Shown here: in pieces, positions 16,621 through 21,224 of the stretch
Position numbering within the stretch: the stretch's first letter is position 1
How the letters are laid out: every line of letters begins with the position of its first letter
Source: Escherichia coli 042
GTDB lineage: Bacteria > Pseudomonadota > Gammaproteobacteria > Enterobacterales > Enterobacteriaceae
Direction: 5' to 3' (one strand)
Assembly (NCBI RefSeq): GCF_000027125.1
Contig: NC_017626.1
Length of the DNA: 64,000 bases
Position numbers and translations under genes: made by a program
The notes under the pieces: generated by a model
Seen by the model: the letters and a program-made list of their open reading frames with translations, nothing else
The model's database searches: none
Told to the model about the DNA's origin: nothing

Positions 16621-17195
16621 CAAACGATGATTACATCCGTCTGTTGTCGGCACTGTTGCCCCCTGGTCCGGCGTGGTCAGCCAGCGATCCGGCGATTGCC
16701 GGTGCGGCACCGTCATTAACCCGTGCTCATCAGCGTGCGGATGCCCTGATGCGGGAGCTGGATCCGCGCACCACCACCGAACTGATAAACCGCTGGGAGC
16801 GTCTGTGCGGCCTGCCGGATGAATGTATTCCGGCAGGGACGCAGACCCTTCGCCAGCGTCAGCAACGGCTGGATGCGAAGGTTAACCTGGCGGGTGGCAT
16901 CAATGAGGATTTTTACCTTGCGCAGCTTGCTGCCCTGGGCAGACCAGATGCCACCATCACGCGATACGACAAAAGCACGTTCACCTGCTCATCGGCCTGT
17001 ACTGACGCGGTGAATGCGCCGGAATGGCGGTATTACTGGCAGGTCAATATGCCAGCTGCCACCAACACCACCTGGATGACATGTGGCGATCCCTGTGATT
17101 CCGCACTGCGTATCTGGGGGGACACCGTTGTCGAGTGCGTGCTTAACAAACTCTGCCCGTCGCATACCTACGTAATTTTTAAATATCCGGAGTAA
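16611..17195 (+). CDS. Tail protein (Mu gp48-like)
   Basis: 194-aa ORF between baseplate J and the fibre gene. Confidence 0.6.
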
Positions 17196-17198
17196 TTC

Positions 17199-18131
17199 AT
17201 GCATCGTATAGACACGAAAACCGCGCAGAAGGATAAGTTCGGCGCGGGTAAGAACGGTTTTACCCGTGGTAACCCCCAGACCGGCACGCCTGCCACCGAT
17301 CTGGATGATGACTACTTTGACATGTTGCAGGAGGAGCTTTGCAGCGTGGTGGAGGCATCCGGTGCCAGCCTGGAGAAGGGGCGGCATGACCAGTTGCTTA
17401 CAGCGCTTCGTGAGCTGCTGTTAAGCCGCAAGAATCCGTTTGGCGATATCAAATCGGATGGCACGGTGAAAACGGCTCTCGAAAACCTTGGTTTGGGAGA
17501 TGGCTCGGGGCGTTACAGCAAAACTGTCGTTTTTTCATCGTCGGGTTCATATACGTGGCCAGCTGACGTAAAACGAATTGACGTTATTCTGACTGCGGCG
17601 GGCGGCGGTGGCGGTGGATGTAACGCGGAGAACGCAAATCAGACATTTTCAGGGGCTGGCGGAGGAGCCGGAGGTACTGTTTTTGCCACTATTTATGCGA
17701 CAGACAACGATGCCGGGCCAGGAACCTATACAGTGACAATTGGCAGCGGTGGTAGTGGTGCCAATGGGGCAGGGTCTGGAAATAATGGCGGTAATAGTTC
17801 GTTCATGACATTAACTGCGCTCGGCGGCCAGGGTGGGCAATGGGGCGGCGCTACAAATACCGCTGGCGGGCGCGGTGGCTCAGGCTCTGGCGGTTATAAA
17901 ACTGAACAAGGCGGAGACGGTTCAGACGGACAGGCGGGCCAGGCGCTATTAGTAGGCAATGGGGCATCGAGCTATTGGGGTGGCGGCGGCCGCGCTGGGC
18001 AACTGAGCGGTAATCCTGGAGTTTGCTCTGGCTCCGGCGGCGGGGGTGCATACGATAATAGCTATTCACACACGTCAGGACGTGGCGGGCACGGAGCTAA
18101 TGGCGTGCTGGTAATTCGGGAGTACATGTAA
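17199..18131 (+). CDS. Tail fibre protein with Gly-rich C-terminal region
   Basis: 310-aa ORF with a conserved fibre-type N-terminus ([21 protein letters not shown]...) and G-rich repeats. Confidence 0.7.
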
Positions 18132-18536
18132 ATGAATGATGTTTATGCAGTTGTTGATAATAACGTTGTTATTAATGTCATTATCTGGGACGGAATTTCT
18201 GAATGGAAACCAGAGGCTGGTAATTTAGTTCCGTTAAACGGCGATGCTGGCATCGGTTGGTCATATTCAGACGGAGTATTTACCGCGCCACCTCCCCCAG
18301 AACGCTCTCACAACGCGTTAGTTGCGGAGGCTGAGCTGCAGAAATCAGCACTACTGACCGTAGCAAATAACGCAATAGCACCGCTGCAGGATGCCGTTGA
18401 TTTGGAAATGGCGACAGACGATGAACAGACGTTACTGCTGGCGTGGAAAAAATACAGGGTACTGCTGAACCGTGTTGATACCTCAGCGGCACCCGAAATA
18501 GAGTGGCCTACGCAACCGGGGGAGCGGGCCAGTTGA
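18132..18536 (+). CDS. Tail fibre assembly protein (Tfa/U-like)
   Basis: 134-aa ORF ending ...[33 protein letters not shown]. Confidence 0.75.
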
Positions 18537-18657
18537 TATCAGGCGCAGGGGCAGCATCAACTGCTGTCACTGCGTCGATGTAGTCGAGTACCGCATTCAG
18601 CCGCCTTTTTTCATCATCAGTCAGTTTGCGGCCTACACCTCTCCGTTGACATCTTTG
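18508..18657 (-). pseudogene. Remnant of a second, convergent tail fibre assembly gene (tfa')
   Basis: Minus-strand frame bounded by TAA upstream, no start codon, ending ...[39 protein letters not shown], parallel to the Tfa C-terminal motif; overlaps the 3' end of tfa. Confidence 0.45.
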
Positions 18658-18834
18658 TTATATGGTACAACTGCGCAGAGGCCTGTCTCTCCAACTGTGC
18701 CAGTTGAATACTACGATACAACGCTCGGCCTTCCTATTTGGTGGAACATAACCACATCCACATGGAAAAGAGCTGATGGTGCAGATGTATAATTCTGGTG
18801 CCGCGCATGCGGCACCAATAAAAAACATATTAAA

Positions 18835-20310
18835 CTAAAGTGAATCTATTCCATTTTTCCAAATAAGAACTTTTTTGTCTTGTATTTTATGAGTGCTATC
18901 AGGCTGCCCAAACTGTTTTATGGCCTTTTCCTCTTGCTCTACATCATCAGCAATTAAAAAATTAGCTCCTTTTTGGTACCATTCTTTTTTTGATAACCAA
19001 TTATATGGTGTGAATCTATCACCATACGACTCAAATGGAGCTACGTTGATATCACTAAATCCAGCAACAGATGATGCAAACCAAAATGATGCATAACCTC
19101 TTTGTAGTTTATTTTTTATTAAGAAATCTCTTAATTCTATTGTAATATCATTTTTATTAACAATGTTTTTTGTTGTTGCCATCGTTGGCAACGATAACGC
19201 AATAACGATTAATGATATTAGTAAATTTGTCTTCACTGGTAAGGAGAAAGAATTTCTAGCAATCACAATTGACATGAAAATAAATGTTGGGACTATGTAT
19301 CTAATTGAGAAAAGATTTGTTGGCCTGTCACTTGAAACATAGGCAATCAACATGACTAATGATGATACAATAAGAACCTGGTCAATAAAATCAATTTCTT
19401 TAAATTTAAGAATGTTTTTATAAGATAAAAATAAGAATACAAAAATGAAAAACACCTTTATCATGGTGAATAATGAGTTAAAGCTACCTATCTCCATTCC
19501 AAACGCGTACCCACCAAAAAATTTGAATACGCCCATGATAACAAGAGATATGTTGCTTGTTATTTGTTGAAACTCTACTATGTGAGGTTTGGTTATGCCT
19601 GGCAGGTTAAATCCACCAAGCTTAATGAATATAAATGATATGATCTCAGCAATAAATATAGATGATATAGTGAAAACCAACAATAACAAATCATTAGTAT
19701 TCAACGAATCTCTTTTCATTAGAGAAGCATACATTCTATATATGCAAACAAAAACTATAGGTATTATAAAGGCATATTTAGATATATCATCACTAAAAAC
19801 AAGCAACGATAACATAAATACATATGGAAAAAGTAATTTTAAATCATTTTTCTTTCTGTATCTATCTATTATTAGTATGATCGCCAGCATGTAAATGTAC
19901 GCACCAATATGTATACATGCTATAAGCATTATACTTGATGAGAAAACCGTTGGAATTCCAAATACAGAAAGAACAGGCCATAACGATGCCCTACTTTTAG
20001 TATGAGAGATATATAGCGATAGTGTTACTAATATAGACATGAAAACTCCAGGCACAATATAGTACAGATTTTCATTAAATCCTATTATTTTTATCGCTAT
20101 AGCATATGGTATTATTTCTGTGAAATAGAATGATACAGTTGATAAATCCCACCCACTGAGAAAAATATTTCCTTCAGTAATATCCCTTGCCTCTCTGAAT
20201 GAAGACATGACATCTGAGTTTGGAATTATGTTTTTAGCAATCATTGAGTAAATTATTGATAATACAATAAATGTTGCCAGCCAATATAAAAGCTCAAGCT
20301 TCTTGCTCAT
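18835..20310 (-). CDS. gtrC: Serotype-specific O-antigen glucosyltransferase (GtrC-type polytopic membrane protein)
   Basis: 491-aa, strongly AT-rich, multi-TM ORF directly downstream of gtrB with a 4-nt overlap. Confidence 0.7.
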
Positions 20311-21224
20311 TTTTTACCCTTAAGTACATACTTTGGACGCTGCTTAACTTCAATGTAAATTCTACCAATATACTCACCGAGCACTCCAATCCCAATTAAC
20401 TGGATGCCGCCAAGAAATAATATTGATACAAGAATTGAAGGGTATCCAGGTACATTATTACCAAAAATTAATTTATCAATTATCATCCATGAACCGTATG
20501 TAAATGATATACATGCAATAAATAACCCAATATAGGTCCACATGCGAAGCGGGAATGTTGAGAAGCTAGTGATCCCTTCCAGCGCCAAGTTCCATAGCTT
20601 CCATCCATTGAACTTTGTGCTTCCTGCAACGCGTTCTGCTCGCGCATATTCTACGACATCGGTTCGACCACCAACCCAGCTCAGCACACCCTTCATAAAC
20701 AGGTTTCGTTCTGGCATGAGCTTAATATTTTCTACTACTTCGCGAGACATGAGCCGGAAGTCGCCAACATTCTCTTCTATCTGAGGGTTGCTGATTTTGT
20801 TATGAAGTTTATAGAACCACTCAGCAGATTTACGCTTCAGCCTGCTGTCAGTGGAGCGGTCAGAGCGTTTAGCCAGAACCATATCTGCACCGGCCTGCCA
20901 TTTCTCTATCAAGTGAGGAATAACTTCGATAGGGTCTTGCAGATCAACGTCAATCGGGATAATTGCCTCCCCGGTAGCATGGTCCAGACCTGCGAACAGG
21001 GCGGGTTCTTTGCCGAAGTTACGTGTGAACGACAGCGAAACCACAAGCGGGTCGGCAACAGCGAGCTCGTTGATAATTGATTCTGTAGCGTCTTTGCTGC
21101 CATCGTTTATGAAGACTATCTCGACTTCATGCTGCTGAAGCCCTTCAAATTCGCGCACAGTTTTATAAAAAATAGGTATCGTGGCCTCTTCGTTAAAGAC
21201 CGGAACGACTAAAGAAATTTTCAT
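20307..21224 (-). CDS. gtrB: Bactoprenol glucosyltransferase (GT2 family)
   Basis: 305-aa ORF with GT2 N-terminal motifs ([21 protein letters not shown]) and C-terminal TM helices. Confidence 0.9.

Follow-up and report, generated by a model that had tools for sequence, protein, structure and literature searches.

Probable remnant of an invertible tail-fibre segment near a predicted O-antigen modification cassette in an Escherichia coli prophage

Introduction

Invertible tail-fibre segments, and their decay, are textbook phage biology. In the G segment of Mu (S-U / U'-S', gin), convergent chaperone genes lie between two fibre ends, with an invertase gene adjacent. The P segment of the e14 prophage carries stfP-tfaP, then tfaE-stfE on the opposite strand and then pinE, with its two tfa genes converging and overlapping, and this segment inverts (PMC12529663). 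A P1-like plasmid with a C segment of the cin type carries S-U, an opposite-strand U' with two S'v genes and a recombinase, and a P2-like prophage that we used as a further comparator has H and tfa, a second tfa facing them and a recombinase 87% identical to PinE.

Two other groups of phages bear on the locus described here. The Shigella serotype-converting myoviruses SfIV, SfII, SfI and SfV carry tail genes followed by an opposite-strand gtrC-gtrB-gtrA cassette and attP (PMC3851460, PMC3636060). One of these, SfIV, encodes a nearly full-length TfaE homologue (ORF22) with no S'v or invertase, which the SfIV paper regards as an additional assembly protein rather than a relic of inversion. In P22, the 3' end of the gene 9 tailspike faces the 3' end of gtrC over a short hairpin spacer, followed by gtrB, gtrA and att, and P22-like coliphages with gtr clusters are known (bioRxiv 10.1101/2021.06.09.447823).

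Here we compare these systems with a tail-fibre locus in the genome of Escherichia coli 042. The window, meaning the whole 64-kb stretch of DNA that was analysed, opens with ~21.9 kb of prophage late region (terminase, head, contractile tail and baseplate, through to ymfQ), and the rest of it is E. coli chromosome.

Results

An intact fibre gene with an e14-type crossover site

The tail module of the prophage ends in an intact fibre gene and an intact chaperone gene, with the following features:

17199..18131, plus strand: tail-fibre gene, intact, 310 aa (ORF; PHROG tail-fibre families)
17199 to about 17503, plus strand: constant e14 StfP-type N-terminus of the fibre gene (DNA identity, tblastn)
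17473..17503, plus strand: Pin-type crossover site, GGCTCTCGAAAACCTTGGTTTGGGAGATGG, at the constant/variable boundary of the fibre gene
about 17504 to 18131, plus strand: glycine-rich variable C-terminal part (Sv) of the fibre gene
18132..18536, plus strand: tfa, intact tail-fibre assembly gene, 134 aa (ORF; PHROG 188, E 4e-35; PGAP 'tail fiber assembly protein')

The fibre region is 96% DNA-identical to e14, across ymfQ and the constant N-terminus of stfP, up to position 17503, and to SfIV up to 17500; beyond these positions the identity ends abruptly. At the protein level StfP residues 1-128 match the fibre gene with 80% identity (tblastn). For the variable fibre end and tfa, the window and e14 have different alleles, glycine-rich in the window and of StfP type in e14. 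The baseplate, the constant part of the fibre and the left crossover site are the same in the Shigella phages SfIV, SfII, SfI and SfV.

At the boundary of e14 identity stands the crossover site CTCTCGAAAACCTTGGTTTGGGAGA, which has the same core as the left P-segment site of e14, agrees with e14 as far as ...GGGAGA, and matches the published 16-nt e14 P-segment repeat TTGGTTTGGGAGAAGG at 15 of 16 positions (PMC12529663). The site lies within the fibre gene, exactly at the boundary of its constant and variable parts, as in segments of the Gin/Pin/Cin type, and it encodes part of the fibre itself (ALENLGLG). In e14 an inverted partner site follows (L005, 6604-6619) and then pinE, whereas the window holds no such partner.

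PGAP divides the 310-aa fibre ORF (17199-18131 in the window; L002, 5100-6032) into a 'StfP pseudogene, missing C-terminus' and a 'glycine-rich domain-containing protein'. By translation the ORF is one continuous frame, and the split is an annotation artefact that stems from the mosaic boundary at the crossover site.

A second chaperone gene, of which the last 41 codons remain

Facing tfa on the other strand is a gene remnant, which we refer to as the tfa' stub:

18508..18657, minus strand: tfa' stub, comprising a stop codon, 41 TfaE/U'-type C-terminal codons and 8 junction codons

An earlier note, made by reading the window's sequence, had placed a Tfa-like C-terminus without N-terminus or start at this position, overlapping the 3' end of tfa, and translation, BLASTP and Pfam bear out both its coordinates and its description. 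The minus-strand frame, translated from 18699 downwards, has 49 sense codons from 18657 to 18511 and a stop at 18510-18508, with an in-frame stop at 18660-18658 immediately upstream, and an ORF listing with a 30-aa minimum contains no start-bearing ORF in this frame. Only the last 41 residues (18633-18511) are Tfa-like; the first 8 codons (QRCQRRGV) are junction sequence that is not homologous to Tfa. In BLASTP searches these residues matched e14 TfaE at residues 160-200 of 200 (68% identity, E 4e-17), SfIV ORF22 at residues 134-174 of 174 (68%, E 2e-17) and, as the best protein match, U' of the P1-like plasmid at residues 160-200 of 200 (80%, E 3e-21). In the reverse direction, TfaE residues 160-200 mapped to 18633-18511 (tblastn) and no other part of TfaE found a match; homology to e14 tfaE ends at about 18634-18636. 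The stub matches the Pfam family Caudo_TAP (PF02413) at model positions 95-130 of 131 with E 5.2e-10, and PHROG tail-fibre-assembly families with E 8e-14 to 3e-6; it is a member of the Caudo_TAP family that lacks the start and the N-terminal domain of a complete gene. The E-values against TfaE, Caudo_TAP and the P1-like U' rule out a chance likeness, and the significant similarity to Tfa proteins on which the earlier note had made its reading depend is therefore present.

Because it has no start codon and is preceded by an in-frame stop, the tfa' stub is a dead pseudogene remnant: of another tail-fibre chaperone gene, facing the opposite way to tfa, only the final 41 codons are left. In every related genome inspected, PGAP labels the stretch equivalent to 18508-18636 'tail fiber assembly protein; incomplete; missing N-terminus', and public RefSeq annotation already flags an incomplete tail-fibre-assembly pseudogene.

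The last 29 nt of tfa overlap the stub tail to tail (18508-18536), which agrees with the overlap described in the earlier note, and an identical 29-nt overlap of convergent chaperone genes is found in e14 (L005, 5518-5546), in SfIV and in the P1-like plasmid. In the last of these, DNA identity across overlap and stub is 75%, while the plasmid backbone is unrelated to the window. The likeness to Mu is one of organisation only. Mu U and U' do not overlap, and we detected no alignment between the stub and Mu U'; of the two comparisons that the earlier note had proposed, with e14 and with Mu, the first alone was thus positive.

A remnant of this kind could also have arisen independently of any inversion system, if part of the resident tfa had been copied from its 3' end in inverted orientation, and the two proteins do have a motif in common (TDDE...VD..AP.I.WP; 43% identity over 35 aa, E 1e-6). 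The TfaE/U' alleles are, however, far closer to the stub (68-80% over 41 aa), the same convergent overlap occurs in intact inversion segments, and no long inverted repeat in the DNA links the stub to tfa. We reject self-duplication on the comparison of 43% with 68-80% and regard it as extremely improbable. Since the match to TfaE/U' is so much better than that to the prophage Tfa, the stub is, judged by its sequence, a separate U' allele of the TfaE/P1 U' type.

An imperfect 17-bp hairpin (18536-18581, plus strand) begins at the tfa stop codon, inside the stub, and by eye a shorter stem is present at the equivalent place in e14 tfaE. Convergent tfa junctions may have such a stem in common, or the likeness may be coincidental. 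The hairpin also bears on whether the stub region has been kept for a function, be it to separate the late operon from the lysogenically expressed gtr operon as a terminator or antisense buffer, or to encode a small peptide. Such a role would fit with the hairpin's place directly after the tfa stop, with the predicted fold of 18530-18660 (-37.8 kcal/mol, z = -1.96) and with the 97-100% conservation of the stub in the seven related lineages aligned. The z-score is marginal, however, no terminator-like site was found between tfa and gtrC, and the sole promoter-like match nearby (18475-18504, plus strand) is at chance level. The absent start codon and the in-frame upstream stop argue against a peptide, and one lineage carries a frameshift in the gene fragment next to the stub (see below). 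The conservation itself is no higher than that of flanking DNA and is therefore explained by recent common descent. A retained function is very improbable.

The other half of the invertible segment is missing

The earlier note had regarded the stub as the vestige of an invertible tail-fibre segment, and this reading is supported by the StfP-type N-terminus, the one crossover site and the 29-nt overlap. We searched the window on both strands for a second crossover site with the 20-mer, the palindromic core and the published 16-mer, allowing up to 3 mismatches, and found none bar a lone 3-mismatch match in host DNA, on the same strand and at chance level; the search for crossover sites that the note had called for thus returned one site and no inverted second copy. 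Neither PinE nor StfE of e14 has a match at E<=1 anywhere in the 64-kb window (tblastn). The window begins within the gene for the small terminase subunit, and the absence of an early-region invertase was established in a related complete prophage, that of strain PCP06238, which lies between ybhB and ybhC (att-lambda) and is 99.4% identical over 17100-18850. PinE has no match in the 47-kb stretch containing that prophage, StfE has a chance-level match only (E 0.12, both tblastn), and its annotated recombination genes are a tyrosine integrase and an excisionase, with no serine recombinase.

We found no S'v and no complete U' on the opposite strand. A similarity search would miss an unrecognised S'v allele, but the space from the stub to gtrC is only about 200 nt. 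Spot checks of host-side ORFs for an invertase or S'v turned up housekeeping genes only. The absence of invertase and alternative fibre that the earlier note had proposed accordingly holds for the window and for the related complete prophage, and the intact invertase and S'v that would have spoken against the note's reading are not nearby.

The constant fibre part, Sv, tfa and stub are contiguous in 65 of the 67 complete E. coli genomes that have this Sv with tfa, in a single orientation, and among these 65 assembled copies we found no orientation polymorphism. Of the components of an invertible segment, the locus therefore has neither second site nor S'v with U', neither serine invertase nor both orientations. 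A single crossover site without an invertase makes inversion of the segment impossible, and host range is reasonably expected to be fixed to one fibre, as the earlier note had also suggested.

Invertases of the Pin family from other prophages could in principle still rearrange the segment in trans by acting on the surviving site. PinQ, PinR and PinE all invert the e14 P segment, PinQ being from a different prophage (PMC12529663), and the surviving site has the same core as that of e14. Two inverted sites are nonetheless needed, of which there is one in 64 kb, and 65 of 65 contiguous copies share the same orientation; rearrangement in trans is highly improbable.

A tailspike remnant is fused to the stub

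Beyond the tfa' stub lie the following features, up to the end of the prophage:

18646..18792, plus strand: tailspike C-terminal fragment, 48 codons and stop, ending ...GTTAQRPVSPTVPVEYYDTTLGLPIWWNITTSTWKRADGADV; a second gene remnant
18796..18817, no strand: GC-rich hairpin GGTGCCGC-GCAT-GCGGCACC (inverted repeat I1, folding)
18835..21583, minus strand: predicted O-antigen modification cassette gtrC-gtrB-gtrA (ORFs; PGAP names in related genomes)
18835-20310, minus strand: GtrC-like membrane protein, 491 aa, with convergent stop at 18835 (PGAP 'hypothetical protein' in related genomes)
20307-21224, minus strand: GtrB (PGAP 'glycosyltransferase family 2 protein (yfdH)' in related genomes)
21221-21583, minus strand: GtrA (PGAP 'GtrA family protein' in related genomes)
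21927..21941, plus strand: lambda-type att core GCTTTTTTATACTAA (exact single match, against 0.01 expected by chance)

The gtr cassette does not adjoin the stub, as the earlier note had it; the 48-codon tailspike fragment stands between them. This fragment corresponds to the last 44 residues (584-627) of tailspike 3 of CBA120 (PDB 6NW9/5W6F, E 7e-14), and its other matches are to the extreme 3' ends of tailspike genes (tblastn). Nothing tailspike-like precedes the 48 codons, so this is not a full-length tailspike gene; TTG is the sole opening codon of the frame, Pfam and NCBIfam give no match for it, and in one lineage a 4-nt deletion shifts its reading frame. Among the matches listed, from 68 E. 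coli genomes, the fragment is unannotated in every record. It meets the tfa' stub at about 18637-18645 through about 10-20 nt of junction sequence and is thus a second gene remnant, fused to the stub.

The hairpin at 18796-18817 lies between the stop of the tailspike fragment and the stop of gtrC and folds with -19.8 and -20.6 kcal/mol (z-scores -4.2 and -4.4); a consensus scan did not call it a terminator. As in P22, a tailspike 3' end here faces the 3' end of gtrC over a short hairpin spacer, followed by gtrB, gtrA and att, and the hairpin holds the position of the P22 gtrC terminator, with the difference that only the last 48 tailspike codons are kept in the window. The P22 tailspike is not known to carry the C-terminal motif of the window's fragment. 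The tailspike stub is absent from SfIV, SfII, SfI and SfV, which share with the window the order of tail genes, opposite-strand gtr cassette and att.

The gene in the gtrC position has PHROG matches only to families of unknown function, on its C-terminal half, and a tblastn search of 50,697 phage records with its protein gave no match at E 1e-5; the gene may encode an uncharacterised serotype-specific O-antigen modifier. The att core marks the end of the prophage beside ybhB-bioA, and within 21790-21941 the sequence just upstream of the core may resemble the P arm of lambda. The SfV/e14-like myovirus thus appears to integrate beside bio, at the site used by lambda, whereas the Shigella phages SfIV, SfII, SfI and SfV integrate at thrW (PMC3636060).

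Graded decay in the SfV/e14 family

The extent to which the second half of the segment is retained differs between members of the SfV/e14 family. The segment is complete in e14, where full tfaE, stfE, the right crossover site and pinE are all present, each of which is missing in the window. SfIV lacks S'v and pin but still has TfaE residues 30-200 at 92% identity; in the window lineage 41 codons are left, and in SfI nothing.

In SfII we observed a weak trace of the TfaE C-terminus downstream of its tfa (L018, 4008-4079; E 0.002) and a weak trace of PinE residues 73-102 around its acyltransferase gene (L018, 5596-5685; E 0.001; both tblastn). These traces may be further debris of the same inversion system.

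Conserved stubs, variable cargo and a block in a P2-like prophage

The tfa' stub is present at at least 95% identity in 68 of 5426 complete E. coli genomes, and Sv with tfa in 67 of the 5426. The junction of the stub with the tailspike fragment is the same in all seven lineages aligned, which points to a single ancestral event. Identity to the window is 96-100% in all seven up to 18725, and 97-100% in the stub itself. To the right of the tailspike stub the DNA varies by lineage, with several gtrC types or an acyltransferase, and so does the integration site, which is either att-lambda or argW with IntS. Where the cargo differs, identity over the final 22 codons of the tailspike stub drops to 64-81% in five lineages, and beyond the stop of the fragment identity is at the level of noise in all six lineages with different cargo. 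These last 22 codons are thus a hotspot of divergence between lineages with different cargo. Three variant endings keep the frame, the position of the stop and the conserved W..A.G residues, which suggests that they were imported from functional tailspike genes along with the cargo.

In E. coli ET650 (NZ_CP100936; L014, 4239-7853) a 3.6-kb block is 98.2% identical to 18375-21989 of the window. Gene G and the sheath gene of a P2-like prophage flank it, its left junction is within tfa, and it contains 160 nt of the tfa 3' end, both stubs, gtrCBA and the att core. Next to the block come a diverged att flank and part of an ORF that, by eye, resembles the N-terminus of hutI. It looks as though a prophage/chromosome junction of another enterobacterium had been moved into the P2 cargo slot of ET650. 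The tfa' stub can therefore travel with the cargo.

This raises the alternative that truncation preceded the stub's arrival at the locus, the stub having formed the left edge of a mobile block (tfa 3' end, stubs, gtrCBA and att) that enters tail-fibre loci through the conserved 3' part of tfa genes, in which case the carrier myovirus lineage may itself never have had an invertase. The ET650 block, with its left junction in tfa, speaks for this, as does the combination of variable cargo (gtrC types, acyltransferase, two att sites) with stubs that are 96-100% identical. Against it, the constant part and crossover site of the window's fibre gene are still its own and of e14 type, Sv and tfa are inherited together with the stub (67 genomes with Sv and tfa, 68 with the stub at at least 95%), and the ET650 copy looks secondary because it carries chromosomal DNA flanking att. 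We consider this alternative possible, though on balance unlikely. It would change the history of the element and not its nature, for whether decayed in place or imported truncated, the tfa' stub originated in some invertible segment. The earlier note's word 'lost' is upheld as to the absence; with the block also present in a P2-like prophage, the loss may have happened in situ or before import as a block.

We found neither of the presumptive parents intact. Among complete E. coli genomes the closest full-length U' genes are 69-78% DNA-identical, and an intact U' ancestor was not found. A donor with a full-length tailspike, this 3' end and gtrC was found neither in the protein database nor in E. 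coli genomes or IMG/VR, nor in phage records searched by tblastn with the GtrC-like protein: in the protein database the tailspike stub matches just three short 'hypothetical proteins' of E. coli, each of them this very fragment, and its matches in IMG/VR are the same prophage and unrelated environmental phages without gtr genes.

Discussion

The reading that we favour, and hold to be probable, is that the tfa' stub is the 3' end of a U'/TfaE-type gene left behind when a single recombination exchanged the distal half of a host-range switch for a module of tailspike end, gtr cassette and att. We infer the order of events and the nature of the donor as follows. The ancestral locus would have had the layout of the e14 P segment or the P1 C segment, with constant fibre N-terminus, crossover site, Sv and U, then U' and S'v on the opposite strand, and then a second crossover site and a serine invertase. 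The donor module would have been arranged as in P22, with a tailspike gene, a hairpin, opposite-strand gtrC-gtrB-gtrA and att. A single recombination without evident homology would have joined the two, with one breakpoint inside U' at about codon 160 of 200 and the other about 48 codons before the end of the tailspike gene. It would have removed the N-terminus of U', S'v, the right crossover site and the invertase, and put in their place a module for O-antigen modification and integration. The locus is left with a single expressed fibre (Sc-Sv) and the chaperone that goes with it, an orphan crossover site and a pair of inert gene stubs, no protein being made from the tfa' stub. The orphan site would have been kept because it encodes part of the fibre.

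On its own the tfa' stub matters little, as an ordinary inert pseudogene from a known kind of system; only the fusion to a tailspike stub and the ability of the block as a whole to move are mildly new. Its value is historical: it indicates that the ancestor of this family of serotype-converting prophages had a host-range switch of the e14/P1 type, whose distal half was replaced by O-antigen-modification cargo. It also accounts for oddities of annotation, namely the 'extra' assembly gene of SfIV and the division of an intact fibre gene by PGAP. Together, the tfa' and tailspike stubs mark precise module boundaries, and could be used to trace the exchange of cargo among enterobacterial prophages.

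A more speculative reading, which we put forward as rather doubtful, is that the paired stubs serve as reusable homology anchors, the tfa 3' end on the left and the tailspike C-terminal motif on the cargo side, between which O-antigen cargo has been swapped repeatedly. If so, cargo would have moved between SfV/e14-like and P2-like phages, into a slot that otherwise holds the invertase half of the segment, and a single locus would have been the site of a recurrent trade of host-range switching for receptor-modifying lysogenic conversion.
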